A stretch of DNA of 43,088 nt, taken from IMG/VR virus record IMGVR_UViG_3300012917_000002, positions 1 to 43,088 of that record. One strand, given 5' to 3'. Positions 2,592 through 27,516 of the stretch are shown here, in pieces; the stretch's first letter is position 1, and every line of letters begins with the position of its first letter. Both the position numbers and the translations under genes were made by a program. The notes beneath the pieces were generated by a model. It made no database searches. It was not told where the DNA came from and worked only from the letters and a program-made list of their open reading frames with translations. This DNA is from a virus.

Positions 2592-3010
2592 ATTATTGTA
2601 CAAAAGATGAGCATATATTTGATAATCAAGCTACTTGCTTATGTGGTATGTTACCAAATATTACTAGAGAATCCGCAAAAAGAGATCCTATAAAAGTTCG
2701 ATATGATATATTATTTCCACCATTTTTAGATGCATTAGCAAAGATAGCCCATTTTGGTGCAGAAAAATATGGTGATTTTAATTGGACTAAATCTCGTCTT
2801 AGAGGTGAAAAATCTCCAATTAATCATATTTATAAACATTTAAGTTCATATATTTGTGATGAACATTACGATCACTTAGAACTAGGGACAGAGCGAAAGT
2901 GGCATCTAGCTTCAATAGCTTTTAATGCAATGATGGAATTTTATTATGAAACAGAAGCACAACTACCCTCAATTCAGGAAAAAAGCACCACCAGTAAAAT
3001 TAAAATGTGA
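2588..3010 (+). CDS. dATP/dGTP diphosphohydrolase N-terminal-domain-like protein
   Basis: RYDILFPPFLDALAKIAHFGAEKYGDFNWTK...INHIYKHL matches my memory of the phage dATP/dGTP pyrophosphohydrolase family pattern. I prefer ATG 2588, which overlaps the polymerase stop as ATGA. The ORF track starts at 2546. Confidence 0.6.
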   Translation: MNYCTKDEHIFDNQATCLCGMLPNITRESAKRDPIKVRYDILFPPFLDALAKIAHFGAEKYGDFNWTKSRLRGEKSPINHIYKHLSSYICDEHYDHLELGTERKWHLASIAFNAMMEFYYETEAQLPSIQEKSTTSKIKM

Positions 3011-10968: not shown

Positions 10969-13900
10969 TTAGAATCACTTTCCATACCACTCAGAGATAC
11001 ACGTATTTGCATATCATATCTATGAAAGTAATCAATCGCCGGACCAAGTACAATACGGGCTACTGTTGTATTTATTGATTTAGGCATCTGAAGCTCGTAG
11101 ACATTATCAACTCCAACCACTACTGGTAGCGTTCCACTATAAATTGGAGTACCAATATTAGCAGGATCTGTAACATTTGCGTCACCATATATCGTTAAAG
11201 CTATAGGTGTAGCCCCGGTAGCCACTAATCGAGTTCTTAAATTAAAGATTTTCCCAATTTTGTCGAATCTGATTGGTCCAATTTGGTCAAATCGTTTAGG
11301 GACTGGGAGACCTTCAACATCCTCTTGTTGTCCAAATCCATAGAATTCAAAAGGCCCAGATGGGCTATATAAGGTCCCTCCAACATCGACTCCGAACATA
11401 TCGTCGATAAAGAAGTGGTATACTGTTGTCTTTCTTGTTGTGTTAAATACGGTTGTATGTGATTGTAATATACCGTCCACAATAGGTGTATAGAGGACAT
11501 CTTTTCCATTTGTAAGAATAACCAGTGGTATTGTACGAATACGCTTGCGGCCCGCGTAGCCGAAATTCTCTTGAGGAATAAATAGAAACTCAGCAGGTGT
11601 AGGAAGCTTCTCACTTACAGCCTCTTCAAGTAATGCTTGGTAAAATTCAAAAGGACCTTCCGGGTCTATTGATCTTAAGATTCCACCTATATCAGTACCT
11701 ATTGTTTCCTGGAGGAAATAATTAACTCGTGTTAGCTTAACTGCCGTAGAAAAAATCTGAGGAACCAAAGCAACGTTATCCACATAAGGAGTAAAGCTAA
11801 CGGAATTCCCCAGAGTATCAATAACAAATGGATAACTAGTAATCCGTTTTCTAGCATAAACACCTAAATTTGAATTCGGTATACGGAGATAATCAAGCTG
11901 TTCCGGCCGCGGATCATATTCAATCGTACTTTCGTACAATTTGAAGACTGTTACATCCGCCATGATATCAACAATCTTAAGTGCATAGCGGAATCCAAGA
12001 GTAACACCATCGAGTGGAAAATAGATAGTTGTCATTCCTGTAGCTTGTACATTACCTAAAGCTGTAAAAGTACCACGATCTTTAGCTATAGATACAGTAA
12101 CGAGCGATCCACCAGTGTCACATACAAGTTTTAATGTAAAAGTATCCTTACGATTACGTGGCTGCGCGTTAGCGTCGAAGATGGTTTGGAAAAATAAAGG
12201 TAAACCGTATTGTATAAAGTCACTAGCATTTGTCACTGGACCTAAATAGCCTGCTAGGACTTTATCTGTCGGCGTGGTAAATAAAGATAGTGGCGCCGTT
12301 TGGCGTAACGTAAATGTCTGTGCAAGTAAATCGTAAACAAATAGTCTTCGACTGCCATCTTGTAGTGGTAAAGATGCATAAAGCTTTGTCTTACCTGCTG
12401 TGATAGGATAAGCTATATTAGCGTTTGGCACAATAGATATTGGTGGGACACCATTTCTATTCATTCCCTGAAAAAGTAATTTTAATTGAGGAGAAAGTAA
12501 TGTTGAATGTGCCCCACGAGTAATTCGTATTCCATCGGACGCAACATAAAATATACCACCATTGACAGTCCATGCCTCGCGACCGAGTGGTGGGTAGGCT
12601 TCACCTATAGGAACAATCGTTATATCAATTGTACCATCTGGAAGAGTACCAAGCGTCCCCGTTATCTCATAAAGATTCTTACTTGTGCCTAAGCATAAAA
12701 CATTGTTAGAAACTTTCTTAATCCATAAATTGCGTTCCAATGTATCACCAAATGTCTTTATTGTATAGCGAGTATCAACAGCATCTGGATTAAGATCATC
12801 ACTAATATAGATAAACGAGTTAGCCATGTACAGAACCCTTGTCTGAAAAGGTTCTATATCATAAATAGTGTCAGTTAAAGCATTTGGATCTGGAGAACCC
12901 GGCCCGCCAACAAGTTGTAGAGTTAGTAAGAATTCATTAAGAATTTCGTTCTCTTCTAGAAGTGAGATATCTGAGCGGTTGTCAAAAAAGGAATCGTTAG
13001 TTGTTACGGCTACAAGATACCATTTACTTAAAAAAGATGTTGGTTGTACATCACTTGTCTGTACTGACTTACGGTATATATAATATATTGGTGGATAAAT
13101 ATCCCCCACAATTATTGGGGTACCCCCAGCACTTTGTAAACCACTTATAGTTATTGATCCATTTATAACTGTTATAGGATCACTTATTTGACCACCTGGC
13201 GATTTAGCTATGTATGAACCATATTGACGCCCGGACTGAATACGATATTGGTAAGTTCCATTAAGCTGACCTATAACTGTAAATATAGGAAGCGTAACAT
13301 TAAATGTTAGATTCTCAATAGCTATAATAGTGATCCGTATCTGGCGAACCGTAGTCCAATTAAGTGTAGCATCAGTACCGTGACGAGTAAAATCTTGTCT
13401 ACGACAGCTTAAATCTGTGGTATAGATAGTTTGAATATCTATAGGCCCATCCCACTTAAATGAATAGTAATTATTCCCAATAATATCAAGAAGAAAATCT
13501 ACTTGAACAGAAAGTACTTTAGGTACTGGATCTGATACAAGTGTTATAGTAAATAAATCTTTAGATGTATCTCCCTGAAATCCACGAGTCGTATCAAATG
13601 GAAGCCCCGTAATATATGTACCAATAACTTGACTTATAAAATTAGTTCCATCTACAGTAGCTTGGTATCCAGCGGTTGTATTAACCCCTAAAGTACCAAC
13701 AACTGCTACATAATTTGCACTAAATAATGCTTGTTGCTGAGATAATGCGTCAGTAAATGGAGTCCAAGGTGTAGGTATTCCAAGTCGTGTTCCACCATCA
13801 TCAATCGCAGCCGTACTTGTTTCTTTACCAGAAGCTTTCCACCGGCAAGTGCCAGCGGTTATTAATACTTGACCTAAAAAATCATCAAATGCACAATAAT

Positions 13901-14270: not shown

Positions 14271-14625
14271 CAGCTATTTGGATATCTTTTATAAATAATT
14301 TCGTTAGCTCAGTTCCGCCCTCATGTTGATAATGAAAATAGATTATATCTTTCTTTATTTCATATTTCAGCCCTATCCATATAAAATGTGGTATAGCAAT
14401 ATAAATCCATCGAGGCTGTCCTATCTTAGTATAGTAACTTATCTTATCAATAACTTTAATTGTAATTGATATAGGATCACCAAGAAGTCTTGCTGTATGC
14501 AAGCTAGAATTCTGTTGAAAGGCTTCTCCTACTTCATACTCTACTCCAAGAGTAAGCCCAGCCTCTCTAGCTACATCCGTAGTAAATGCTGTTGGATTAT
14601 TATGTCGATCTGTTCTAAAAGTCAT
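14233..14625 (-). CDS. Hypothetical protein (possible cell-wall-acting virion protein)
   Basis: 130-aa ORF. The N-terminal RHNNPTAF vaguely resembles an RxNNPxN motif seen in some phage wall-associated proteins. The functional call is weak. Confidence 0.35.
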   Translation of the reverse strand: MTFRTDRHNNPTAFTTDVAREAGLTLGVEYEVGEAFQQNSSLHTARLLGDPISITIKVIDKISYYTKIGQPRWIYIAIPHFIWIGLKYEIKKDIIYFHYQHEGGTELTKLFIKDIQIAVGDSLDFKDKVG

Positions 14626-15686
14626 GGCACATCATTTAAATATCTCCTTATATAATTTATAAATAATCCACTATCACCCATAGGTGGTTGAATCACTTGA
14701 ATTGAATCACTAAGACTTAGAGTATCAACTGCGGTACGCTGAATATTTAAAATCCCAATATTAGTTATCATTAATCCAGTAATAAGATCGTTTAGACTTA
14801 GTGCATCAGTTACAATTCTTTGAATATCTAATATACCTAAATTCGTTACCGCTGTGAGAATACTATCAGAGAAACTTAGTGTATCATTTACATTTATTCG
14901 AATATCTCCAGATAATGCTAATGCAGCAATTGAATCATTAAGACTTAAAGTGTCACCCACAAATACACGAATATCAGATATAGGTGGGCCAGAAATTGCA
15001 ATAGAGTCGCTTAGGCTTAGAGTATCTGATATCTTCAGTTGTAAATCTAATAATACATTTATGCTATCAGATAATTGTAGTGCATCACTAAATAATACAG
15101 TATTATCTGTAGTTCCAGTAATAACTTGATCTGTCTCTGTAGCAACTAATAATCCTATAATATTTAATGGGGTTGGATTTGTTGGAGCAGTCAATGGTAT
15201 AGTAAAAGATACAGTTGCAAGAATACCACTAGCAATAATATTTGAATTATGCCCAAATACTAGCATATTATCACCAATAGTATCTAATTCTTTCCCAGCA
15301 GTAGTTCCGGCCGTGCCAATGGTTGCAGAATTAATAGTTAAATTAGCGTGGTCATATTGTAAGGCCCATTGAAGAGCAGAAGGAAAGGCATTGCCAGATA
15401 CTATTATATGTATACTAACTATTACTGTAGCGCCAAGTGCACCGATAACTTGATCTATAGATAAAGATACAATTCCAGATTCAATTAATCCAATATTATT
15501 AGTAACTAATATAGCGTCAACTAAAGATAGCTGGTCAGATACATTTATTGGAATACTAATGACATAAGATAAATTATCACTAAGAGCTAAGCTGTCAACC
15601 GCAGAGCGAGGTACACCATTAGCTGTAGCAATAGCATCACTAAGAGCTAAGCTATCGCTAACAGAGATAGGGATATCAGTTGGCAC
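14622..15686 (-). CDS. Repeat-rich fibre-like protein with central cohesin-like module
   Basis: Flanking DxLSLSDSI-type repeats occur at least 10 times. The central segment (aa ~72-197, nt 15096-15473) reads GATVIVSIHI...ALQWALQYDHANLTI...SGILATVSFTI, which matches the cohesin domain pattern as I remember it. Confidence 0.55.
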   Translation of the reverse strand: MPTDIPISVSDSLALSDAIATANGVPRSAVDSLALSDNLSYVISIPINVSDQLSLVDAILVTNNIGLIESGIVSLSIDQVIGALGATVIVSIHIIVSGNAFPSALQWALQYDHANLTINSATIGTAGTTAGKELDTIGDNMLVFGHNSNIIASGILATVSFTIPLTAPTNPTPLNIIGLLVATETDQVITGTTDNTVLFSDALQLSDSINVLLDLQLKISDTLSLSDSIAISGPPISDIRVFVGDTLSLNDSIAALALSGDIRINVNDTLSFSDSILTAVTNLGILDIQRIVTDALSLNDLITGLMITNIGILNIQRTAVDTLSLSDSIQVIQPPMGDSGLFINYIRRYLNDVP

Positions 15687-16692
15687 TCTTTATGATCTCT
15701 ACAAATGTACCATCTATAATACCACCACTTTGTTCTGCAAAATACTCTTTATCAACCATAGGAGCAATATTAATAGAAATCTTACTACCTGGTTTAACTA
15801 CTCTCACCCATTCTAGATGTGGCCTTGCTAAAGCTAAGAACTGTGGTTCCGTCACAATAATCCAATCAAATTGTTCTGCATCAAACGGAAGACTTCTATA
15901 ATCGACAGAATAATCACAAGGTATACCGTTATCAGAGCAATGCGTAATATCATAAGTCTCATCTACTAAATCTGTATAAGGTCCAAGTATAAGACATTTT
16001 TTATCTTTAATAACTAATTTCTGTCTCATTGGTAGGGAATCTTTAGGCAATTTATAAACACGTCCAGTATTTACATCGTGATGTTCACATATTACTGATG
16101 CATCGCAGTAAATTTTATAATCAGTTTCTTCCTTCACTTTCTTTAAAAAATAAAGATCCTCTGTCCAAGTTTCCGCCTGATTCACTGCATCCAAATAGTT
16201 ATCAGTATCAACTGTCTTAAACCATGGTTCTTTAAGTTTTTTAAATATCTCTACCCGCAAGAGTGTGCAGTCCATACCTAAACCAGAAACCTCAAAGAAC
16301 TCACCAACTTTCCAATCCCAGAATGAACCAGCACCATTTTCTTTAAATACTAATGGTGCCGGTGGATCTGATTTAGAGCAATAAACACCACCCACAACTC
16401 CAATATTAGGTATATTTTCCATCCTATATATAAGCTGCCTAAGAGTATGGGGAGGACACACAGTATCGTCGCCAATAAAGAATAAATATTTAGCATCTTT
16501 GGCTATCGCCTCTTTAGCAATTTCGTTACGAGCATCCGCCACTTGGCGGCCTTTAACTATATGGAAGATTACATTAAAATTTATAGGAGGGTTCATTCCT
16601 TTAAAATTAAGTGCCCAATCAAGAGGTACAGGACGGCCAAGAGTAGGTATACCAACAACTAGGCCCGGTCCAAGATTATTTTTAACTTTCAT
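15676..16692 (-). CDS. GT-A fold glycosyltransferase with C-terminal methyltransferase-like domain
   Basis: The N-terminus (GIPTLGRP...ARNEIAKEA...YLFFIGDDT) has a DxD-type motif. The C-terminal ~110 aa (CLILGP...FDWIIV...VVKPGSKI) looks like a degenerate class I methyltransferase. Confidence 0.65.
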   Translation of the reverse strand: MKVKNNLGPGLVVGIPTLGRPVPLDWALNFKGMNPPINFNVIFHIVKGRQVADARNEIAKEAIAKDAKYLFFIGDDTVCPPHTLRQLIYRMENIPNIGVVGGVYCSKSDPPAPLVFKENGAGSFWDWKVGEFFEVSGLGMDCTLLRVEIFKKLKEPWFKTVDTDNYLDAVNQAETWTEDLYFLKKVKEETDYKIYCDASVICEHHDVNTGRVYKLPKDSLPMRQKLVIKDKKCLILGPYTDLVDETYDITHCSDNGIPCDYSVDYRSLPFDAEQFDWIIVTEPQFLALARPHLEWVRVVKPGSKISINIAPMVDKEYFAEQSGGIIDGTFVEIIKSAN

Positions 16693-17399: not shown

Positions 17400-18116
17400 T
17401 TAGAAGATCACTCTCTCAAAATTAGCAGGTAATAATGGCCGCGACTGGCGGAAATTATCTATTGCTAAGCGACCGTCATCTATAGCATATTTCTTAGAAA
17501 CAAAACATCCTTCATTAATCGCCCGAAATTGGTTAATTAAAAATTCATATTTATTCTTATAATAAGCTGCCGCAGTCAAAGACTGACCTTTACCTTCTGC
17601 TCCATATGCTTTCCAAAGTATCCATGCTTTACGTGTCCTACGATCTATATATTGTGGTAACACAAGAGTTGGATCAACATAAGATGTATCAGAAGTTCTC
17701 CAGCATGAAACTACACAAAATGGCTCATTTACTACTGGTCCATAAGGATCACCACCGGCTACGCCGAAGGTTTCATTTGGTGTTGGGAATAGTCGTATAT
17801 CATATGGATTTGTAGGATGTAGGCAATAATAAAGTGGTCGTGATACAACACTATTAACATTACCAGAATTTCCTGTTCCTACAAATACTGTTGCAGGAGT
17901 AAGAAGAGTCATCTCTTCCCAACTTACCGGATCTAATTTCCGCCCGCGCCACGTAACTCTAAGTACTGATCTTACGTAAGATGGCAACGTATAAACCATC
18001 AAACCAGATGTAACAGCTAGATAGAATTTAAAATAAATAGCTTGCAAATCTTGATTGATTTGCTGTTCTGCGTCAATCGCTAACTTGTTAAGGAAAGTGT
18101 TAGACCAAATAGACAT
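17400..18116 (-). CDS. Putative adaptor/tail structural protein
   Basis: 238-aa ORF. It shares a loose pattern with the next gene (RKL-P-S...W...P-YY...P-P), suggesting the two are paralogues. Confidence 0.45.
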   Translation of the reverse strand: MSIWSNTFLNKLAIDAEQQINQDLQAIYFKFYLAVTSGLMVYTLPSYVRSVLRVTWRGRKLDPVSWEEMTLLTPATVFVGTGNSGNVNSVVSRPLYYCLHPTNPYDIRLFPTPNETFGVAGGDPYGPVVNEPFCVVSCWRTSDTSYVDPTLVLPQYIDRRTRKAWILWKAYGAEGKGQSLTAAAYYKNKYEFLINQFRAINEGCFVSKKYAIDDGRLAIDNFRQSRPLLPANFERVIF

Positions 18117-18126
18117 ATCTTTTTAT

Positions 18127-18747
18127 TTACTTCAAAGAAGGTAAACGATCAGGTAATCTCTTATTTCTCATATAAACTCTTAAACTTTCCAAGTCATTTA
18201 TATAAGATTCAAGATGATTCCTCGCCTTAATAAATTCTTGATTCTGCTCAAATAAATCAGTTACACAATAATTCTCAAGCGCTGTTAAATGGTCGTCAGG
18301 AATAGGTATATTTGTAGCATCGACGAGAGTCGGGGCGGCCGCGCGGTAGAACACAAACATATTACCATAGCCGGCTGCGCCTGGTTTCTTATAGATAGCT
18401 ACATATCTATGTGATATTGGTACAAAATAATATGGTGTACCAAGTGCCGTTTCCCAATCAATTCGATCTTGATCCAACTTGCGTTGTGATGTTGGAATAA
18501 GCCATCTTTTTATATTATTATTGAAAATAGCAACTACACCTATATAGTTAGGTAGAAGTGTTAGGAGATCATAATAACTTTTTCCAGCAGCAAAGTTGAT
18601 TGTCGCAGATGCATAGATACATCCTGTAAAAGCACATATCTCATCTACACCATCTTGAATAGAATCATTCATGTCACCAACGGTGTAATAGGTGGGATTA
18701 TTTAGATATAGTTGTATACTATTTTGAATATCTATTCGAGTGGACAT
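18127..18747 (-). CDS. Putative adaptor/tail structural protein
   Basis: 206-aa ORF immediately downstream of the fibre gene in the late operon. Confidence 0.45.
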   Translation of the reverse strand: MSTRIDIQNSIQLYLNNPTYYTVGDMNDSIQDGVDEICAFTGCIYASATINFAAGKSYYDLLTLLPNYIGVVAIFNNNIKRWLIPTSQRKLDQDRIDWETALGTPYYFVPISHRYVAIYKKPGAAGYGNMFVFYRAAAPTLVDATNIPIPDDHLTALENYCVTDLFEQNQEFIKARNHLESYINDLESLRVYMRNKRLPDRLPSLK

Positions 18748-18762
18748 TTCATTTCTTCTCCA

Positions 18763-20643
18763 CTAATTGAGAATCGAGTAAGAAAGACACAGCGGATTCG
18801 TCGCAATGGTCCCACTATAGGTAATCGTAAAACTTGTTCCGGGAGTCCGTGCCGTAATCGCCATACCACCTACAAGCGTAGCAAGTATACTATTACAGGT
18901 CGTAGCTGCAATGATTAATGAATCGTCAGCCTGTAAGTGAATTGCGCTGTTAGCGGTGACTGCTGTAGTGTTCACCACTAATGAGACACTGGTTATTCCA
19001 GTCGGTAGCGCCACGTCTCCTGAAGCGGCATCAACACACATAGCCGGTGACCCTGCATCAGAGCAACGAGTAGCTGTGCCCCATAATGGAGAGGATGTAG
19101 TACCGAACAACTGTGTTGAAACGGTACTGCTATTCCCAATGACAGTCTGATTGCTGGCTGTGGCCGTCCCGTTGATCGCGATGATGTTAGTCAGCGGATT
19201 TCCCGTTGATGCGTTCACCGCCGTGAACCCCGACAACGTCGTCGAGGTCCCTAACACGACCGAGTTGTTGATGTCTTTATCCGTCCCGATCAACGTATCG
19301 CCGCTGCCATAGAACGCGGAGTTTGTTCCATCCCCAATGCTTCTGGCGGAGCGATAGCCACTGGCCAGTAGATAAGGTCCGGTATTATTTTGAGAGGACT
19401 CTTTGCCATTTACGGTGACGCCATTCCCTGTATTATTTTCTGCGGCAGCAAAACCAGATACAGTAACATCATTGCCGGTATTGGCATTTGCTGCGTTTTC
19501 CCCCACGGCTACGAGGAACCCACCTGTGTTATTTTGAGCAGCCGCGATCCCTATCACGGTTACATTCGCGTTGGTATTTGATGCCGCTGCGTTTTTTCCA
19601 ACGGCCGTCAGACTATTTCCAATGTTCTGAGCGGCGGCGGAATACCCCATCGCTGTAACATAGCTTCCGGTGTTCGCTTCTCCTGCATTCTGGCCTAAGA
19701 AGCTACTACCGTATCCCGTGTTGTTTTGCCCGGCATAGTACCCAAAGGCACTGAGCCCGTCACCCATGTTGTTTTCCCCGGCATGATGGCCGACAGCCAT
19801 GGCGTATAGACCGCCGTTATTTTTAAGGGCGTCATAACCCAGCCCCAAAGTCAAATCAGGAAACCGCAATGGTAAACTCAGATCCGTTTTAGAACTATTT
19901 GTAAGACTAATAAAAGCAGGGAATGGCGCGGAAACGCCGGAGGTATAGCTTTTCACCGAGACGGAAGCAAGCACCCAGCCATCTCCGTCCGCTAAGAAAT
20001 TAATGGCATTTGAATCCATGATGAACGTGTAGGTACCTGGATTCACCATGGTGAAATAAAACGTCGTGCCGTTAGTTACTTCTAACCCGAAGCCAGCACC
20101 ACGTGTGGCTAGAACTGCTTCTACCCATACTTTCCCCATCCCACTTATCGATTGAGACAGTGTTCCGCCCGCCATACCGACTGCTTGATTAGCGACGTTG
20201 GTCCAACTCATCGTAGGATCAACGGTCCACCCGGTTAGATCACCAGTTTGAAAAGTGCCGTTAGTTAAAAGTTCTGTGTTCCCAATTGTTGGGGCTAAAA
20301 CAGAACTGACACTAACAGTTGTTGGAGAAGTCGTATTAACAGAAAATATTCCTCCACCACCATTTAATTGTGCTTGCCCTACTGAGCCTGCCGGGGTAGC
20401 TCCACCACCTAATGATATAATAACCCAAGCAGATCCATTTGATCTACAAAAATTAATACTACTTCCACCACCTACTGTACAGTCACTACTTGAAGATCCA
20501 TCTTTTATAATACGTACTGTACCATTATTAGATGATGCAGATCCTAATCCAGCTACTGTATAATTACTTCTTACAACCGCTGTCGGTTGCGCCAGTAAGC
20601 TGATGGTTAAAATTAGTCCTATTAAATATTTCACTTTTCTCAC
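18763..20643 (-). CDS. Chimeric tail fibre/adhesin with Sec-type leader, jelly-roll-like domain and NTG beta-roll repeats
   Basis: N-terminus is MRKVKYLIGLILTISLLAQP. LLTNGTFQTGDLTGW is like a CBM/galactose-binding-like domain. Ten 16-aa A-x-x-N-N-T-G repeats follow. The C-terminal ~500 aa lie in a higher-GC segment. Confidence 0.7.
   Translation of the reverse strand: MRKVKYLIGLILTISLLAQPTAVVRSNYTVAGLGSASSNNGTVRIIKDGSSSSDCTVGGGSSINFCRSNGSAWVIISLGGGATPAGSVGQAQLNGGGGIFSVNTTSPTTVSVSSVLAPTIGNTELLTNGTFQTGDLTGWTVDPTMSWTNVANQAVGMAGGTLSQSISGMGKVWVEAVLATRGAGFGLEVTNGTTFYFTMVNPGTYTFIMDSNAINFLADGDGWVLASVSVKSYTSGVSAPFPAFISLTNSSKTDLSLPLRFPDLTLGLGYDALKNNGGLYAMAVGHHAGENNMGDGLSAFGYYAGQNNTGYGSSFLGQNAGEANTGSYVTAMGYSAAAQNIGNSLTAVGKNAAASNTNANVTVIGIAAAQNNTGGFLVAVGENAANANTGNDVTVSGFAAAENNTGNGVTVNGKESSQNNTGPYLLASGYRSARSIGDGTNSAFYGSGDTLIGTDKDINNSVVLGTSTTLSGFTAVNASTGNPLTNIIAINGTATASNQTVIGNSSTVSTQLFGTTSSPLWGTATRCSDAGSPAMCVDAASGDVALPTGITSVSLVVNTTAVTANSAIHLQADDSLIIAATTCNSILATLVGGMAITARTPGTSFTITYSGTIATNPLCLSYSILN
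19303..19782 (-). repeat. Ten tandem 48-nt (16-aa) degenerate repeats inside the fibre gene
   Basis: AGENNMGDGLSAFGYY / AGQNNTGYGSSFLGQN / AGEANTGSYVTAMGYS and so on, aligned by hand. This is the periodicity of adhesin-head (YadA/Hep_Hag-like) beta-rolls. Confidence 0.75.
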
Positions 20644-20647
20644 TTTC

Positions 20648-21079
20648 TTATCTTACACAAGAAACGCCATAAGTAAGCGCGCCAGGATCATAAGCAGCAC
20701 CACTTAAATTAGCAAGCATAACAGATATCACATCAGAAGCAGAACACCATGCAGTCATAATAACTCCGTCAGCTAACCCCGCGGGCCGTAAAGTAGCAAT
20801 ATAATCAGTTACACGTGCACCAACTAAAGCAAATGTCAAAATAGCATACGAACAATCATCTATTGAACCAAAATTTAAAGAAGCTGTGCCTGCAAGATTT
20901 GTAGGGCTACCAGAAGAAGAAGCTATAAGTGTCCAAACGCCTGCTGAGAAACAGCCGTAAAGTGCAGGACTTGTACCAGTAAGAAAGAAGAATCTATAAA
21001 GTTTAGCATTAGTTGGCAAAGTCTCACCAACAAGCATATATCGCTCTATAGTTCTTCCAGATTCTCCAACTTGATTCAT
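20648..21079 (-). CDS. Hypothetical protein between the methyltransferase and the fibre gene
   Basis: 143-aa ORF with a 4-nt start/stop overlap with the upstream methyltransferase. Confidence 0.5.
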   Translation of the reverse strand: MNQVGESGRTIERYMLVGETLPTNAKLYRFFFLTGTSPALYGCFSAGVWTLIASSSGSPTNLAGTASLNFGSIDDCSYAILTFALVGARVTDYIATLRPAGLADGVIMTAWCSASDVISVMLANLSGAAYDPGALTYGVSCVR

Positions 21080-21618
21080 CTTGCTAGTCCTAATTCACTT
21101 GTTAATACCATCTCTCGGCTTACCGGAGCAGGATCTTTATAGGCGCATAGAATAGTATTGTATGGTTCATTGTCACTTTCGTACCGAAACCCTACTCGGT
21201 AAAATCCAGCCGCCTCAAGAGTTTCCTTTATCTCATGAGAATCCATAGGTACAACATGGTAATCAGTGTCATAAAGCTGGCGGCCGTAGAGTGTTGCTCT
21301 CCAGAAAGTACGTTGATTATTTTCATTCTCAATAAATCTCCGCGCGCATTCTTTAAACTCTGGATAGGCAAGTGTCAACGACCCATTATCTTTAAGTACT
21401 CTAGTAAACTCCGCCAGGAGGCGACCCCACTTAGGCATCTCTATATGTTCAAGACAATGAATCATCCATATTTGATCTACAGAATTTTGTTCATAAGGTA
21501 ACTGTTTATCAACAAAGTCAAGTACCAAATCTGGTTTAACATTACCAGCACTTACACAATCTATATTTATAAATCCATCTAACTTAAATTCGCCACAACC
21601 TAAATTTAGTTTAAGCAC
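21076..21618 (-). CDS. Class I SAM-dependent methyltransferase
   Basis: Motif I is LNLGCG. The downstream pattern VDQIWMIHCLEHI...VLKDNGSL is typical of the type-11 family. The GTG start directly abuts the glycosyltransferase stop. Confidence 0.75.
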   Translation of the reverse strand: MLKLNLGCGEFKLDGFINIDCVSAGNVKPDLVLDFVDKQLPYEQNSVDQIWMIHCLEHIEMPKWGRLLAEFTRVLKDNGSLTLAYPEFKECARRFIENENNQRTFWRATLYGRQLYDTDYHVVPMDSHEIKETLEAAGFYRVGFRYESDNEPYNTILCAYKDPAPVSREMVLTSELGLAR

Positions 21619-22365
21619 CTAGGTCATCTCCTGCATAACTGACTCAATATGTGCTTTCATCCGAAATTTAATAGCATCCTTTTCATCAAACTCCGGTTTG
21701 TAGAATTCTCGTAACTTAGATACATTCTCATCAGAGACAGCATCAGGCATAAGTAGATGGCCAGTTGATACCTTTGTATCCACATATATAGATGGTTCAG
21801 GTTCAAGCTCTGCACGGGCCTTTAAACAAAAATAAACATCTTCTGTATGCCCTGGTCCTGTTACAAAATAAGGTGGACTCATAGCTCGAATTACATCAAC
21901 CTTTATAAGTACACAACTAAAACCTACTGCCCCAGTCTTAACTAACCCAGCTTCATCAATTTCTTCAGGGTAGCTGTCGTGGAAAGTAAGATTCTTACGT
22001 GTCTTACCATTCACGGGATTATGTACATCCGGTCCAAAATCCTTAAAGAACATTGGGTGAAAAGGATATCCCCGTACATACGTTAGCGCCAAGATGATAT
22101 CTTTATCGGCCGTGCGGAGAGATGTATAAGTATTCGGTTTAACAATCACATCATCATCAATAAACATAAGATAATCACATTTATGGACCATTGCAACTTT
22201 TGCACAATCATTACGCATATTATCTATTGACATTCGATATGGAGTATAAAAGATAAATTCATCATCCGGAAAATCTCTTTTCATCTCTACCCAAAGTTTA
22301 CAATGAGAAGAATAGACAAAAGAATTTACAGATTCAAGTGTATTTACACCAACTAATGTTTTCAT
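21619..22365 (-). CDS. GT2-like (GT-A fold) glycosyltransferase
   Basis: 248 aa with a DxD motif (LMFIDDDV) and NMRNDCAKVA upstream, as in family 2 glycosyltransferases. Confidence 0.7.
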   Translation of the reverse strand: MKTLVGVNTLESVNSFVYSSHCKLWVEMKRDFPDDEFIFYTPYRMSIDNMRNDCAKVAMVHKCDYLMFIDDDVIVKPNTYTSLRTADKDIILALTYVRGYPFHPMFFKDFGPDVHNPVNGKTRKNLTFHDSYPEEIDEAGLVKTGAVGFSCVLIKVDVIRAMSPPYFVTGPGHTEDVYFCLKARAELEPEPSIYVDTKVSTGHLLMPDAVSDENVSKLREFYKPEFDEKDAIKFRMKAHIESVMQEMT

Positions 22366-22478
22366 AATTTTTTATAATGACAAGGACATAAACATTTTGT
22401 TTTACAAATTTTACAATTTAATCTACAATCCTTATGTTTCCCGTGTTGGCAATAAGTAGAAATATAAAGATGTTTCAC
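22362..22478 (-). CDS. Cys-rich micro-protein (38 aa), translationally coupled to the glycosyltransferase
   Basis: Hand translation: (V/M)KHLYISTYCQHGKHKDCRLNCKICKTKCLCPCHYKKL. AGGAG lies 6 nt upstream of the GTG. There is a GTGA overlap with the upstream ORF and an ATGA overlap with the glycosyltransferase start. Confidence 0.5.
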   Translation of the reverse strand: MKHLYISTYCQHGKHKDCRLNCKICKTKCLCPCHYKKL

Positions 22479-22621
22479 TTCACTCTCCTAATTTTAATTA
22501 AATTATGCTCTTTATCAAAATCAGTAATTTTATATACACCAAGTTCATTCCATCTTCGGCCGCGCCAGTATTCATAAGGAAACCACTTTCCCTCTGGTGG
22601 CCATTTACCTAAGAATCTCAT
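22475..22621 (-). CDS. Trp/Arg-rich micro-protein (48 aa)
   Basis: Hand translation: MRFLGKWPPEGKWFPYEYWRGRRWNELGVYKITDFDKEHNLIKIRRVK. There is no clear SD. It is coupled to the next micro-ORF. Confidence 0.35.
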   Translation of the reverse strand: MRFLGKWPPEGKWFPYEYWRGRRWNELGVYKITDFDKEHNLIKIRRVK

Positions 22622-22640
22622 TATTAATTTAAACAACATA

Positions 22641-22710
22641 CAAAAAATAAAGGCACCAGGTAGAATAGCCGCTCATAATCCCTGACTTTACCCACGGCTT
22701 TGGCCTTTTA
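22641..22710 (-). terminator. Candidate intrinsic terminator/attenuator after the capsid-decoration genes
   Basis: On the minus strand, AAAGGC (22708-22703) pairs with GCCTTT (22654-22649), with an inner GCCG/CGGC helix. ATTTTTTG follows. It sits just downstream of gene 22734-23267. Confidence 0.4.
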
Positions 22711-22733: not shown

Positions 22734-23267
22734 TTACATAGCTCTCAAGAATGTCTTTAAAGCTGTTGTAATAGCAGTTCTAGAAGTTGTGTCAAAAGAA
22801 GAAGATTGTGAAGCAGTAGAAGTATATGCCTGGGCTGCAATTATATTTGGCAAAATTGCAGTTGCAGCACCTGCCGCAGATCGGCTTACGGCATCAGCCC
22901 CTGTCAGTGTATTGATTTGCAATACATCACCTACAACTATAGCTGTAAATGAATTGTAACTATCAGTAGATGCAGCCCGCGTAGCTGTAACTACACGAGT
23001 ATTTTGGCAAAGCCCAAAAACTTGAGACTCGCCATATCCTTTTTGAGCCAATACAGATAGATTTGGACCTGATGGTGCAGCTACAATCCCGGCAAAAAAT
23101 TCCTGATTTGCTCCTGCTGAGGCATTAGCTCCCTTTACATCAATACCATCATTCGTACCATTCATTACAAAGAAAATCGGAGCACCTATAGGAATATCAT
23201 AGTTGTCCGCATTTCTTACTACAATGAAAGCCGCATCATATTTATTACCAACTGTTTTAAATCTCAT
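22734..23267 (-). CDS. Putative head decoration/minor capsid protein (DUF2190-like)
   Basis: 177-aa ORF directly after the major capsid gene. It has a beta-rich N-terminus and a Ser/Thr-rich C-terminal tail. Confidence 0.45.
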   Translation of the reverse strand: MRFKTVGNKYDAAFIVVRNADNYDIPIGAPIFFVMNGTNDGIDVKGANASAGANQEFFAGIVAAPSGPNLSVLAQKGYGESQVFGLCQNTRVVTATRAASTDSYNSFTAIVVGDVLQINTLTGADAVSRSAAGAATAILPNIIAAQAYTSTASQSSSFDTTSRTAITTALKTFLRAM

Positions 23268-23306: not shown

Positions 23307-24431
23307 TTATGGCGTCACTAAGGTACGGGCAACTTTACCAATAACACCTTGTTTACGTCGATTATCAGTAGTAAGATTACCCATCCAGGCAACATGACCA
23401 ACGCGGCTGTCACCATTGACAGGTTTAAAGAAAGTACGTCCCTGATCGTCTTCAAGCATCTTAAAGTCAGAATCGTCTTCATAAATCATCTTGAAAAATT
23501 CAGGATTTATAAAATATCCACTTCCATAGGTAAGTGATGTAGTTGTTCCTGCACCAGCCACTAAAGTAGGTACTGTACCACTAAAGGCATCTGGTGTCTT
23601 ATCATCCATTACAAAATGCGCCCCTTTATAGACAACATTCTCAAATGGATAAGCATCATCAACTTGTACCTGAGTATATCTATATTTCTGATACAAAGCA
23701 TGAACAAAAAGTTGGTAAGTAACTTGATCCATAAGAATCAATTTAGACTTACCACCAGTGCCTAAAGAGCATGAGTTAAAGATAGAATCTACCTCAAGTA
23801 AGAATCCATCATACGTTGTAGCGGCCGAAGTAAGAGTTTTATTTCTCCACCAAGTATTTGTATCTTGCGCAATATTACCTATTGACGTAGATGTCGTAGG
23901 ATCAAACTTAATAAGTTCACCAAGCGGTTCAATGCTCGATGACCCATTAATCGGAGATACATAAGGAGTAGCAATAGATCCCCCAATCTGATTGGCAGAA
24001 CCAAACATAAGAGATTGAGAGAAAAATTCCTGCAAGCCCATCTCGGCTTGTTTAATACGTGATTTTACCAAGTCTACGATTTTCTGCTTATTTTGCTTAA
24101 CTTCTCGCATCGAGTATGCGATAGCAGCAGCACATTGACGCCACTGATAAATACCGTCAGTAATCCCATCAGTCGGAACCGTAGAAAGCTCGTCGTAACC
24201 GTCATACGAGTCTGCATTTGCCAACGCATACATAAGTGGAATTTGAATATACGTTCCACCATCTTGCCCTTCATAAAGTTCCTTAGAAATAATCTCAAAG
24301 AAAAAAGCGTTAACTGCTCCAATATTGTCAATTAGCTCTTTGCGATATGCAGAGAGGCTAAGACCGAAAAGTGAATCTAAATTAGTAGTTACTTGCGATG
24401 GTGCAGAAGAACTACCAAATGTAACACCCAT
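23307..24431 (-). CDS. Major capsid protein (HK97-fold, P22-coat-like pattern)
   Basis: 374-aa ORF placed after the scaffold-like gene. The sequence pattern (NAFFFEI...GGTYIQIPLMY...YDGYDEL...) is reminiscent of podophage coat proteins. Confidence 0.7.
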   Translation of the reverse strand: MGVTFGSSSAPSQVTTNLDSLFGLSLSAYRKELIDNIGAVNAFFFEIISKELYEGQDGGTYIQIPLMYALANADSYDGYDELSTVPTDGITDGIYQWRQCAAAIAYSMREVKQNKQKIVDLVKSRIKQAEMGLQEFFSQSLMFGSANQIGGSIATPYVSPINGSSSIEPLGELIKFDPTTSTSIGNIAQDTNTWWRNKTLTSAATTYDGFLLEVDSIFNSCSLGTGGKSKLILMDQVTYQLFVHALYQKYRYTQVQVDDAYPFENVVYKGAHFVMDDKTPDAFSGTVPTLVAGAGTTTSLTYGSGYFINPEFFKMIYEDDSDFKMLEDDQGRTFFKPVNGDSRVGHVAWMGNLTTDNRRKQGVIGKVARTLVTP

Positions 24432-24444
24432 TTTATTTACCTAA

Positions 24445-25284
24445 CTATTTTCTCGCGACACGAGATCCCTCGTCCGCTATTTGCTGCTGTGCCCAAGCGA
24501 TTGACTCTTTAAGCGACATTTTCTTAGTAGGCAATTTACCTTCGCTTATAGACCCAGCAGTATGTAATCTTGATGGCGCATCAGAAGCATTCCGTCGCGC
24601 CTTATCCGCAATCTTTGCTTTATCTTGAGCGGCAAACTTACCAACAGTAGCTTGTTTATAAAGACCACGAATATATGTTTCCGCAGACGTATTTGCCCCA
24701 GGAAGAAATTCCTGTGTCAAAGGTACAATCATTTTACCTAATTGCTCAGTAGAAATTTTATTTTCTCTAGCAACCTTTTCCATAGCAGAATTTGTCATCT
24801 GCTGTATATTTTGTTGTTCTATTTCATTAAACTTTACAGAATGTTCTGCGCGAGCAGTTTCTAGAACAGCTTCCATCATTCGTGTCATTTGTGGCACGAG
24901 CATTTTAAACTCAGGCCCTAAAGCCTCAGTAACTATTTGTGATAATGATTTAACATTATCTTTTACTTCTTGTTTGGTTTCTGCTTTAAGCAGACCAGCT
25001 TGTTGTGCAAGAGCAGCAATTATAGCTGGTCCCTGGTCACCTTTTATTGCTCTATAAAGAGCTTTAGCTTCTTTAAGTGTTACATCATCAAAATCATCAT
25101 CAGATGACTTTTCTTCATCAGAACCAGAAGACTCTTCATCTTCTGAATCCTCAGAACTTTCGGACTCTTGGTCCTCTTTTTTATTTTTTTCTTTAGATTC
25201 CTCACCTTTAGCGTCAGAATCCTTAGAATCTTTCAAAATCTCTTCAGTTGCTTCATTAATTGCTTTATCTACTGCTGTGGGCAT
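24445..25284 (-). CDS. Scaffolding protein
   Basis: 279 aa, highly acidic and helical (an EDSEDEESSGSDEEKSSDDD tract). It lies between the portal and capsid genes. Confidence 0.6.
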   Translation of the reverse strand: MPTAVDKAINEATEEILKDSKDSDAKGEESKEKNKKEDQESESSEDSEDEESSGSDEEKSSDDDFDDVTLKEAKALYRAIKGDQGPAIIAALAQQAGLLKAETKQEVKDNVKSLSQIVTEALGPEFKMLVPQMTRMMEAVLETARAEHSVKFNEIEQQNIQQMTNSAMEKVARENKISTEQLGKMIVPLTQEFLPGANTSAETYIRGLYKQATVGKFAAQDKAKIADKARRNASDAPSRLHTAGSISEGKLPTKKMSLKESIAWAQQQIADEGSRVARK

Positions 25285-25680: not shown

Positions 25681-27516
25681 CTATTGCACTACCCCTGGTT
25701 GCTGCCCTATTAACTGTTGTCGAATTTGTTCCATACCATTAGGAGTTTGTTGCGCCACGGCCGCTTGACCAGCATTACCATTTTCAGGCATCTGCAAACC
25801 AGTTTGTGCCTTAAGTTGCTGCATCCTACCCAATTCCATAAGAAGTGCCATCTTCTGCAATTCTTTTATGGCTTTATCGTTACGATAACCAACTCGATAA
25901 GCTGCTTCACGGACCAATAAAGGACTAAAGGATATAGCAGGATATTGAGTAAGTACAGCGAGAAATTCCAGAAATTTTTGTTTCTCATCTTGCTGCGCTG
26001 TTACACTAAGTGATGTTACATCTATATCAATACGGAAATCATATCCATCTTTAAGATCTTCAGATGTTATCCATTTAAAAGCCGCTTGTTGTTCTTGAAT
26101 TGATCCCAGAAAATTCTCACCTTCAGGAGACATTTGTTTAATCCAAAGACCAAGCACAAATTTCTCTTGGGTAAGCATAAGTGCCTCGCGACCAATAGAG
26201 CTTAGCCAGAATACAATTCGGTCGCGGTCCGCATTCATTCTTAAAGATGCTCTTGAATTGACAATATTTGCTTGAGTTGCTGTTGTTCTATCTGCAACTT
26301 GTCGATCTTCTTGAGATGTTCCTGATATTGTGTTAATATCTGCTCCTGACGTTTGTACAGCTTCAGCCAGCTCTGGTCCAAGACTCGCATTTTCAATTGG
26401 AGATATTGCATTTTCAACTTTAACTTTGATAAGCGCACCATCTGGACCCGTTTCGAATTTTTCGATTTCCTCATCATCTGCGCGGCCTTCTACGATTTGA
26501 AATTTACGCACAAATCGACGCCGATGGGCGCGAAGCATCTCTCTAGTTTCATTTATTTCATCTTGAGGGGAAAGCCAATGGTAGGCAGGAGGAATAGGAT
26601 AGAAACCATCTGTAATAAGTCGCTTGTCAGGCCGATAATCAAATAATGGTAAACGTTTGAATCTTCGTTGGAATATTGTGACGCTAGGAGTGTCAAGAAC
26701 AAGAAGTTGTAAGCTTGCACGAAGATCCCAAAGTCGCCATATTTTTAATACATTACCTTTATGTATATTCGTATTACTTGATTTGTCACCAGTAGCGCTT
26801 TCAGCATCAGACGAAGTTCCCTGTGCAGATAGAATCTTATCTCGATTCATTAATCCTTTTAGCGACAAAAGGTCTTCTTTATTGACCCAATCAAAATAAC
26901 CACACCACCCACATCTGTCGAGATATTTATGGTCGATTCCACCAACCCTGAATCTTTTAGCCGAGATATGGCGAAAATAGATTCTTTCGTTAGCTGGAAG
27001 TTCTTCGGGTTCCTGTCTAATTCTGTATTTGTTTGTTGCATGATTATCTGTGTCCTTAGCTAAAAGAGGCTTCTGCGCATTTGGGTTATCAATCCAATCC
27101 GCCGCATATCCTACCTCCATCAGACCAAATCTAAAAAAGCTATCCTTATACGCCATCTCTATTTCATCATGAAAATGGCGTCTCTCATCCTGAATATGAC
27201 TATTAAGTACATCCTCTTTAAGTTGAGCAGATGTAATCGCCGATTCAAAATCGTATTGAGCATTAGCTGGCCGCGCAGAGACAATATACTTAGGAAAAGT
27301 AGGGATAAATTCAGCTATTTTAATTTGTATTGTCTCATAAATCTTATTTATTACATATGGGTTGTATCCAAGTTCACGTTGAGACTTCCATTGCTGCCCC
27401 TCATAATATTTATCTAGAATATCACACTTAAATAGCTTCTGCCAAGACTTATAATAATGATCTGCCGCTTCAAGACGATCATGCCAAATATTATCATCAA
27501 TAATTTGTTTAGGCAT
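25681..27516 (-). CDS. Portal protein
   Basis: 611-aa ORF immediately downstream of the large terminase. The N-terminal YYKSW...YYEGQQW motif is typical of podophage portals. Confidence 0.8.
   Translation of the reverse strand: MPKQIIDDNIWHDRLEAADHYYKSWQKLFKCDILDKYYEGQQWKSQRELGYNPYVINKIYETIQIKIAEFIPTFPKYIVSARPANAQYDFESAITSAQLKEDVLNSHIQDERRHFHDEIEMAYKDSFFRFGLMEVGYAADWIDNPNAQKPLLAKDTDNHATNKYRIRQEPEELPANERIYFRHISAKRFRVGGIDHKYLDRCGWCGYFDWVNKEDLLSLKGLMNRDKILSAQGTSSDAESATGDKSSNTNIHKGNVLKIWRLWDLRASLQLLVLDTPSVTIFQRRFKRLPLFDYRPDKRLITDGFYPIPPAYHWLSPQDEINETREMLRAHRRRFVRKFQIVEGRADDEEIEKFETGPDGALIKVKVENAISPIENASLGPELAEAVQTSGADINTISGTSQEDRQVADRTTATQANIVNSRASLRMNADRDRIVFWLSSIGREALMLTQEKFVLGLWIKQMSPEGENFLGSIQEQQAAFKWITSEDLKDGYDFRIDIDVTSLSVTAQQDEKQKFLEFLAVLTQYPAISFSPLLVREAAYRVGYRNDKAIKELQKMALLMELGRMQQLKAQTGLQMPENGNAGQAAVAQQTPNGMEQIRQQLIGQQPGVVQ

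Follow-up and report, generated by a model that had tools for sequence, protein, structure and literature searches.

A candidate virion-glycosylation cassette in the head module of an uncultured phage clade, and a mini-protein gene of a Cys7/His4 family inserted into it

Why does a phage carry genes for a sugar-transferring and a methyl-transferring enzyme in the middle of its virion structural operon, and does a very cysteine-rich small open reading frame (ORF) just upstream of them belong to the same machinery? The question is raised by the late operon of the IMG/VR virus record IMGVR_UViG_3300012917_000002. This record, which carries direct terminal repeats and comprises the complete 43,088-bp genome of an uncultured soil phage, was analysed over its full length (hereafter, the window). 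An earlier note on this DNA had proposed either that a glycosyltransferase (GT) and an S-adenosylmethionine (SAM)-dependent methyltransferase (MT) encoded there modify the virion, or that the cysteine-rich peptide is itself glycosylated in the manner of a glycocin or serves the GT as a Zn-binding cofactor. We find the first proposal to be the best supported and assign a probability of roughly 0.55 to its composite form, in which the cassette would glycosylate the phage's own virion proteins and the glycan would be methylated. It is carried by two recognizable enzymes, by the nearly fixed position of the GT gene among relatives, by protein-acting GT-A enzymes among the fold matches and by a Ser/Thr patch in a neighbouring protein; the acceptor, the sugar and the methyl target are candidates read from this context. 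The cysteine-rich ORF (m38) is a mobile small phage gene, probably metal-binding by its residue pattern, that landed between the GT gene and a second small gene (m54).

The ORFs, the overlaps between them, the 38-aa sequence and the Ser/Thr-rich tail described in the earlier note are all present on the minus strand. The cassette and its immediate upstream surroundings read as follows, in the direction of transcription:

22734-23267 (-): 177-aa cement/decoration-like protein, gene directly 3' of the major capsid protein (MCP) gene; candidate glycan acceptor
22764-22823 (-): Ser/Thr patch TSTASQSSSFDTTSRTAITT, residues 149-168 of the 177-aa protein
22642-22708 (-): branched, terminator-like hairpin, then UUUAUUUUUU, in the gap that separates the cement-like gene from the micro-ORFs
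22475-22639 (-): m54, small Trp/Tyr-rich protein, 54 aa from the ATG at 22639 or 48 aa from the ATG at 22621
22362-22478 (-): m38, Cys7/His3 mini-protein of 38 aa; the 114-bp insertion corresponds to 22365-22478
21619-22365 (-): 248-aa GT-A-fold glycosyltransferase, predicted soluble, assigned by AlphaFold2 (AF2) model, Foldseek and invariant motifs
21076-21618 (-): 180-aa class I SAM-dependent methyltransferase, assigned by Pfam Methyltransf_11
20648-21079 (-): 143-aa protein, N-terminal module conserved, C-terminal half variable, in the slot between the MT and adaptor genes

By its predicted structure, the 248-aa protein is a soluble GT-A glycosyltransferase. The AF2 model, built on a 25-homologue alignment, reached a mean predicted local distance difference test score (pLDDT) of 89.7 and a predicted template modelling score (pTM) of 0.85. 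Foldseek returned 196 matches in the PDB at E ≤ 0.001, the top 50 of which were all GT-A-type or nucleotidyltransferase-fold proteins, headed by STIV A197 (E 2e-11), COLGALT1, the GT domain of LH3, mimivirus R699 and the ppGalNAc-Ts (E 2e-11 to 1e-6). D70-D71-D72, the motif HTEDVYFC (residues 173-180) and H203 are invariant in 25 homologues, which reach down to 31% identity in the alignment, and a profile search of PDB sequences aligned the DDD with the DxD regions of A197 and COLGALT1. The label "GT2-like" given in the earlier note is thus apt for fold and motif, and fails for Pfam GT2 membership: the threshold of PF00535 was not reached, and the only signal was a sub-threshold Anp1 match (15.7 bits versus a cut-off of 28.8). 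Among the PHROGs, the protein matched phrog_1574, likewise below threshold (E 2.4e-6). Neither an N-terminal signal sequence nor a membrane anchor is visible by eye in the GT or the MT.

An alternative that bears directly on these residues is that the protein serves as a structural head component that kept the GT-A fold and lost its enzymatic activity. Its place as a core gene inside the head module would fit, as would the precedent of vaccinia H3, a GT-fold protein without known activity that appeared at Foldseek rank 49. However, the invariant metal-binding DDD, HTEDVYFC and H203 form the pattern expected of an active enzyme, and a SAM methyltransferase and a second glycosyltransferase co-occur with it; we regard the loss of activity as extremely improbable.

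The 180-aa protein is, by family and motif, a class I SAM-dependent methyltransferase, whose substrate class is not fixed by its sequence. It exceeded the cut-offs of Pfam Methyltransf_11 (PF08241; 33.9 bits versus 21.2) and PF13649 (28.4 versus 27), carries the SAM loop LNLGCG at residues 4-9, at the very start of the protein, and shares G9, D20, D30, H54, E57, H58 and R73 with all of 23 homologues. Profile searches led to numerous class I methyltransferases of solved structure, sugar O-methyltransferases among them. Both enzymes named in the earlier note are real. The sugar-methyltransferase matches are weak, namely MftM (E 2.6e-4, far below the cut-off) and the D-glucose O-methyltransferase 6uv6 (E 3.5e-4), and stand among many unrelated small-molecule methyltransferases. 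Further downstream, a 338-aa protein qualifies as GT2 by Pfam (PF00535, 27.9 bits versus a cut-off of 23.3) and matches phrog_1574, the same PHROG as the 248-aa GT; homologues 50-61% identical to it lie at the equivalent place in at least 10 relatives. The late operon thus holds two GTs and one MT in total.

A further argument for a role in the virion comes from the distribution of the cassette. Locus scans with the GT against IMG/VR (33 loci) and JGI metagenomes (58 loci) and an MCP alignment (64 loci) were carried out, and the tally covers the 62 distinct relatives whose sequence extends 1.8 kb or more beyond the MCP gene on its downstream side. GT and MT occur together in 54 of them and the GT alone in six (L023, L067, L104, L110, L121, and L161); one further relative has the GT and too little sequence to judge the MT, and a single one (L134) has neither. 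The GT gene follows the cement-like gene in the head module in 61 of the 62, and the order MCP, cement-like protein, GT, (MT), head-tail adaptor is kept even at about 22% portal identity. By this count, the head module of the clade includes the GT as a core gene, with the MT as a companion that is frequent but dispensable. At L134 (6155-7670), a 70-aa ORF is all that separates the cement-like gene from the adaptor gene. The MCP shares only 23-27% identity with its counterparts in Mx8, Mx9, a Bradyrhizobium phage and others; no GT is annotated after the capsid genes in Mx9 and the Bradyrhizobium phage, the two that were examined, and no cultured relative appears to carry the cassette. A metagenomic phage in GenBank (MW202711) presents the MCP gene, a small ORF, a gene annotated as "putative glycosyltransferase" and an adaptor-like gene in this order.

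Which virion protein might be the acceptor? The best candidate is the 177-aa protein, homologues of which are encoded 3' of the MCP gene in nearly all relatives. The label cement/decoration-like is reasonable but not proven: Pfam PF09956 (Phage_cement_2) was matched by two of 21 aligned family members (best E 1.1e-5), a profile of the family found nothing in the PDB, and hhalign indicated no relationship to p82 of Mx9. The Ser/Thr-rich tail that the earlier note had singled out on this protein is present as quoted and occupies residues 149-168. Of these 20 residues, 13 are Ser or Thr, a density that no other stretch reaches in the ten late-operon proteins scanned. GT-bearing relatives share the consensus AS..S.ASS...DTRTAIT, in fuller form roughly LAS.ASSAS.T.DTRTAIT..VK.F.R.M, placed before the conserved C-terminus. 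Over a 32-residue segment, they have 8-14 Ser/Thr, with lower numbers in L060 (6) and L057 (2). L134, which is devoid of GT and MT, has 5 Ser/Thr in this segment, and its patch is replaced by IPAYVGGPAAVGD.

Several points weigh against virion glycosylation and have to be set beside this evidence. Position in a structural operon does not identify the acceptor, and the window's own copy of the 177-aa protein yielded no match to PF09956. The patch is a conserved motif rather than a loose tail and may have a purely structural role; the distant clade L028/L029/L032 kept the GT with a shortened patch, and the joint loss of GT and patch is suggestive at n = 1 GT-less genome. Regarding the enzyme, the fold matches have TM-scores of only about 0.5, and cell-wall enzymes occur at lower ranks (TarS at rank 25, GlfT2 at ranks 36-50, and also Mnn9). 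The hairpin at 22642-22708, which plays a part in the proposed expression scheme, is no more stable than shuffled sequence (z 0.94). Lastly, m38 overlaps the gene on either side of it and is preceded by a Shine-Dalgarno sequence of its own, so that a link to the GT is possible in this genome.

The cell-wall enzymes TarS, GlfT2 and Mnn9 also speak for a different target, the host envelope. One or both GTs and the MT could alter lipopolysaccharide, capsule, exopolysaccharide or a teichoic-acid-like polymer on the cytoplasmic side, and such a change could exclude superinfecting phages or keep progeny from adhering to debris. The genome does encode proteins directed at the envelope, namely a cohesin fibre, a dockerin enzyme and the 626-aa protein with its leader. 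Genes for host conversion are as a rule sporadic morons and do not form part of a core head module. The envelope explanation fits poorly with a soluble core enzyme whose gene keeps its place between the cement and adaptor genes in 61 of 62 relatives; in addition, no membrane anchor or N-terminal signal is visible by eye in the GT and MT, and family scans of the window proteins revealed no flippase and no Gtr-type or polyprenol-linked partner. We consider it unlikely.

A third possible target is DNA: before the genome is packaged, the GT might add sugar to a base that is already modified, for example a hydroxymethylated pyrimidine, with the MT acting on the DNA or on the sugar. Phage GTs that add glycans to DNA are known (bioRxiv 10.1101/2023.12.21.572611), and the 248-aa GT has a weak PHROG match to the beta-glucosyl-HMC alpha-glucosyltransferase family (E 0.0068). 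A 154-aa protein encoded at 2546-3010 (+), right after the family-A DNA polymerase gene, matches the N-terminal domain family of dATP/dGTP diphosphohydrolases (PF18909, E 2.3e-14), which hints at nucleotide-pool manipulation; a neighbouring 401-aa ORF gave no PurZ-like match. Set against this, the 10 largest early-region proteins contain no hydroxymethylase, no TET/JBP-type dioxygenase and no DNA methyltransferase domain, the MT matches small-molecule and sugar-type class I methyltransferases rather than DNA methyltransferase families, and the genes sit in the late head operon, away from the replication genes. We give DNA hypermodification very little credence.

If the cassette does glycosylate virion proteins, we infer the following course, including acceptor, sugar, methyl target, attenuation and coupling, with the enzyme activities being predicted ones. 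Late transcription would read through the terminator-like hairpin behind the abundant capsid and cement genes, leaving lower, catalytic amounts of m54, m38, GT and MT, the overlapping stop and start codons of which would couple their translation. The GT, with DDD and a His as the metal site and an E/D base in HTEDVYFC, would take a host nucleotide-sugar and move the sugar onto Ser/Thr of a virion protein in the cytoplasm, the best candidate acceptor being the Ser/Thr patch of the cement-like protein encoded just upstream. The MT would then O-methylate the transferred sugar, and the 338-aa GT2 downstream might extend the glycan or serve the fibres. m54 would be a conserved small accessory protein of the GT in one sub-clade, and m38 would stand outside the machinery, having entered by recombination at a TGAAA microhomology exactly between the m54 stop and the GT start, with the overlaps kept.

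The gene junctions are in keeping with such coupling. m54 and m38 overlap by GTGA, m38 and GT by ATGA, and MT and the 143-aa gene again by ATGA, while the GT stop codon TAG is immediately followed by the GTG of the MT, and the 143-aa gene is separated from the 626-aa gene by a spacer of 4 nt. AGGAG is found 6 nt 5' of the GTG start of m38; no obvious Shine-Dalgarno sequence precedes the GT, and its translation would depend on coupling to the upstream ORF. The overlaps and abutting codons described in the earlier note can thus be read directly in the DNA, and the co-translation deduced there would follow from them. An additional ATG at 22639, 18 nt upstream of the one used for the 48-aa form in the public gene call, extends m54 to 54 aa. 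As to attenuation, the hairpin after the cement-like gene is weak in both the window and the closest relative, L043, where the flanking AAAGGC / GCCTTTATTTTT (the outer arms of the hairpin) are kept. Strong G+C hairpins with a U-run occupy the equivalent site in L001 (5643-5675, z -2.3) and L004 (5745-5783, z -3.7). Together, the hairpins after the cement-like gene suggest transcriptional attenuation before the enzyme genes, i.e., partial termination after the abundant capsid proteins.

Are the two small ORFs part of the cassette? For m54, judged by its conservation, the answer is that it is a real gene under purifying selection. Homologues exist in five lineages, comprising the window, L043, L001/L036/L120, L003/L004/L038 and L039/L040, all of which fall inside the sub-clade with GTs at least 63% identical. 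The stop codon of each full-length homologue overlaps the GT start, usually by ATGA, and the window has m38 in between. Compared to its L043 homologue, m54 shows 62-67% identity, depending on the method, and a dN of 0.31; dS is saturated, as it is in the neighbouring genes. The protein is rich in Trp and Tyr, contains no Cys and was assigned to no known family in the family scans. Word-based searches with m54 and with homologue P0003 recovered nothing but the queries. The conservation of the micro-ORFs on which the earlier note had staked its case therefore divides: the 48-aa ORF is retained in four other lineages, and the 38-aa ORF is absent from relatives as a partner of the cassette.

The history of m38 is most apparent from L043, which lacks it and is the closest relative, with amino acid identities of 97% (MCP), 79% (cement-like protein) and 81% (GT). 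Alignment of the two DNAs revealed an exact 114-bp indel with TGAAA at both junctions. The m54 homologue of L043 ends in ...GTAATATGAAAACC and overlaps the GT start, and the window reads ...GTGAAGTGAAACAT, then m38, then AAATTATGAAAACA across the insert. A profile of the m38 family gave no match in any of 19 related phage genomes, 17 of which reach a completeness of 90% or more, with the window's m38 serving as positive control (E 9e-21), and the ORF is absent from all other relatives that were examined. Because the other m54-bearing lineages join m54 straight to the GT, a single insertion in the lineage of the window is the parsimonious explanation. An ancestral m38 that was lost in the relatives was considered and set aside as less parsimonious, given that all four other m54 lineages have m54 directly joined to the GT. 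A second, weak match to the m38 profile (E 0.0017) at 11676-11747 (+), on the opposite strand within a gene for a 1106-aa protein, is interrupted by stops and probably due to chance.

It could still be argued that m38 works with the GT in this genome, be it as a glycocin-like substrate, as a Zn cofactor or as a recruited metal-binding regulator or targeter. Its overlaps with the m54 stop and the GT start, together with its own AGGAG ahead of a GT without an obvious ribosome-binding site, are suited to such a partnership, and other Cys-bearing ORFs precede the GT elsewhere: a different Zn-ribbon ORF in most of the distant clade, and two ORFs with four Cys each in L011. Against it stand the absence of m38 from the closest relative and the 19 related genomes, and the homologues described below, which lie in early-gene arrays without a GT. 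Moreover, inspection of the 38-aa sequence by eye showed neither a leader nor a cleavage motif, the Pfam matches of the window (which do not cover all ORFs below 90 aa) include no peptidase or ABC exporter, and about half of the GT-bearing relatives examined have just 39-120 bp between the cement gene and the GT. We judge a functional partnership improbable, and the earlier proposal of a substrate or Zn cofactor is not borne out.

The ORF itself goes beyond chance. A phmmer search of 1.84 billion cluster representatives returned 301 homologues at E ≤ 0.001 (E 4.9e-12 to 1e-3), the best of which is 79% identical over residues 1-34, and the core Cys motif recurs in 145 of the 153 family proteins retrieved. 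Of the 30 nucleotides at which m38 differs from its nearest homologue, 20 are third positions of codons. An origin of the Cys richness from an AT-rich TGT repeat was ruled out by the homologues and the third-position bias. The alignment of 60 short members gave the pattern H-x-Y-x-S-T-x-C-x-H-x2-H-x2-C-R-x2-C-K-x-C-x3-C-x-C-x-C-H, in which Y5, C10, C18, C22, C25, C29, C31 and C33 are invariant and H3, S7, T8, H12, H15, R19, K23 and H34 nearly so. m38 has all eight invariant and every near-invariant position; at 38 aa, it amounts to the bare domain of about 34 residues, with 11 potential ligands in 32 residues, and the Cys/His pattern indicates that it probably binds metal. The pattern matched no Pfam, PHROG or NCBIfam model, tblastn of m38 and one homologue against GenBank phages gave no match, and neither did a degenerate DNA pattern in IMG/VR. 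The AF2 model is compact (mean pLDDT 87.4), and a Foldseek search of the PDB gave a best E of 5.4, with RING and C2H2 fingers as weak, non-significant neighbours.

Regarding the genomic setting of the family, four homologue contigs were inspected. They stem from unrelated, mostly high-GC phages with a G+C content of 0.44-0.70, and the homologues lie in arrays of small early/replication genes, with neighbours including Phage_ssDNA_bind, ERF, DUF3310, DUF6221, an N6/N4 methylase and a transglycosylase; no glycosyltransferase lies near the m38 homologues on these four contigs. Gly/Ala/Arg/Pro-rich flanks accompany the domain in 123 of 140 family members. A degenerate motif scan of 185,579 species genomes pointed to nine places, eight of them convincing members, which belong to five Nocardia (L170, L173, L175-L177), a Nocardioidaceae and an Actinomycetota metagenome-assembled genome (MAG; L172 and L174) and a Methylocystis MAG (L171). 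In two of the Nocardia copies, inserted residues separate the first Cys-His part from the CR..CK.C part. By these searches, the family appears to be undescribed, with hundreds of members in phages and actinobacterial genomes.

The slot before the GT is occupied by small ORFs in other relatives, too. Most members of the distant clade carry an ORF of about 56-61 aa immediately 5' of the GT, which encodes a CxxC...CxxC Zn-ribbon and a hydrophobic C-terminal helix. Its carriers include L025-L029, L032, L062, L064-L068, L072, L073, L079 and L082, with GTs of 30-38% identity; the ORF measures 170-190 bp, ends 0-45 bp before the GT start or just overlaps it, gave sub-threshold matches to Zn-ribbon Pfam families and is unrelated in sequence to m38 and m54. 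The two ORFs of L011 (5656-6023; 69 aa and 53 aa), located between the cement-like gene and the GT, include a CxxC each among their four Cys and had no family matches. The recurrence of small proteins before the GT appears to be an unexplained pattern and offers no evidence for a role of m38. In a far-reaching version, glycosylation of the cement protein would be obligatory for head assembly across the clade, which would explain the GT as a core head-module gene; m54, the Zn-ribbon and the Cys7/His4 proteins would be interchangeable GT subunits, and the Cys7/His4 domain would represent a new metal-cluster fold. We regard this combination as a decidedly long shot.

The remainder of the late operon, all on the minus strand, frames the cassette as follows:

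25681-27516 (-): portal
between the portal and scaffold-like genes (-): 97-aa ORF
24445-25284 (-): scaffold-like protein
23307-24431 (-): MCP (phrog_9953, E 3.9e-32)
18763-20643 (-): 626-aa protein ("fibre") with a signal-peptide-like N-terminus, variable cargo outside the conserved cassette
18127-18747 and 17400-18116 (-): two SU10-type head-tail adaptor paralogues
between the adaptors and the 338-aa GT2 (-): 156-aa fibre-like protein
15676-16692 (-): 338-aa GT2, the second glycosyltransferase of the operon, right ahead of the cohesin-bearing fibre gene
14622-15686 (-): cohesin-bearing fibre

As judged from the relatives, the genes for the 143-aa and 626-aa proteins are not conserved and fill a variable slot between MT and adaptor. 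Only the N-terminal ~70 residues of the 143-aa protein recur: a 112-aa ORF that follows the MT in L061 matches them at 59% identity, and ORFs in L122/L125 do so at 43-45%. This module, R.MLVGE.LP.NAK.Y..FFLTGT..LY.C...G.W, was located at 20648-21079 (-) in the window, at 778-1116 in L061 and at 7964-8260 in L122; in the window and in L061, the genes that come next encode different proteins, each with a signal-peptide-like N-terminus. The 143-aa protein received no assignment in the family scans, and the 626-aa protein has no homologue among the relatives. The G+C content of 1-kb windows lies at about 0.33-0.44, with a single island of 0.52 in the 626-aa "fibre" gene. No tRNA genes were found in the 43-kb window, and blastn of the region against 50,697 GenBank phages gave no nucleotide-level relative.

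If virion proteins are indeed the target, virion glycosylation would be no peculiarity of mycobacteriophages but a fixed core feature of a large environmental phage clade that relies on unrelated enzymes, which would matter for how particles persist, adsorb and are recognized in soil. Beyond this, we consider two by-products the most original: the Cys7/His4 mini-domain family and the status of the GT as a core head-module gene in a large uncultured soil and freshwater clade. The m38 gene exposes a domain of about 34 residues that is tractable for structure and metal analysis, and it cautions that tight gene overlap does not imply common function.

Among known systems, glycocins such as sublancin (SunA/SunS) resemble the locus in that a small Cys-containing peptide gene lies directly 5' of a GT2-like gene. 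Unlike in glycocins, the pairing of peptide and GT is not conserved and no leader is visible; no exporter, peptidase or thiol-disulfide partner occurs among the Pfam matches of the window, in which not all ORFs below 90 aa were scanned, and the seven invariant Cys and four near-invariant His of the m38 family suggest a metal cluster rather than two nested disulfides. m38 is closer to generic phage Zn-ribbon and Zn-finger proteins, being small and having conserved residues that are almost all Cys or His, but differs from them in a pattern that corresponds to no family model and no solved fold. The GT shares its predicted fold and an aligned DxD site with A197, COLGALT1/LH3, R699 and the ppGalNAc-Ts at 10-16% sequence identity; however, it is much shorter (248 aa) and has no lectin or second domain.

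The closest parallel in arrangement is provided by mycobacteriophage Corndog (Cluster O), whose structural operon contains an O-methyltransferase gene and three transferase genes (gp35-gp38); their products are absent from virions and were proposed to add methyl groups and glycans to the capsid (PMC4351075). Glycosylation of capsid and tail tube has been reported for Che8, Corndog and Myrna (PMC12363180, citing Freeman et al. 2023). Comparisons by hhalign of the GT with gp36, gp37 and gp38 and of the MT with gp35 indicated no relationship (probability 0.2-0.9%), and the Corndog genes lie between portal and protease, whereas the cassette described here lies between cement protein and adaptor. 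The phages of this clade also differ from Corndog in being low-GC, podophage-like (SU10-type adaptors) and uncultured, and in that the GT is near-universal among them. The cassette represents the same kind of arrangement as in Corndog, with GT and methyltransferase genes placed within the virion structural operon, built from different enzymes and in a different phage lineage.

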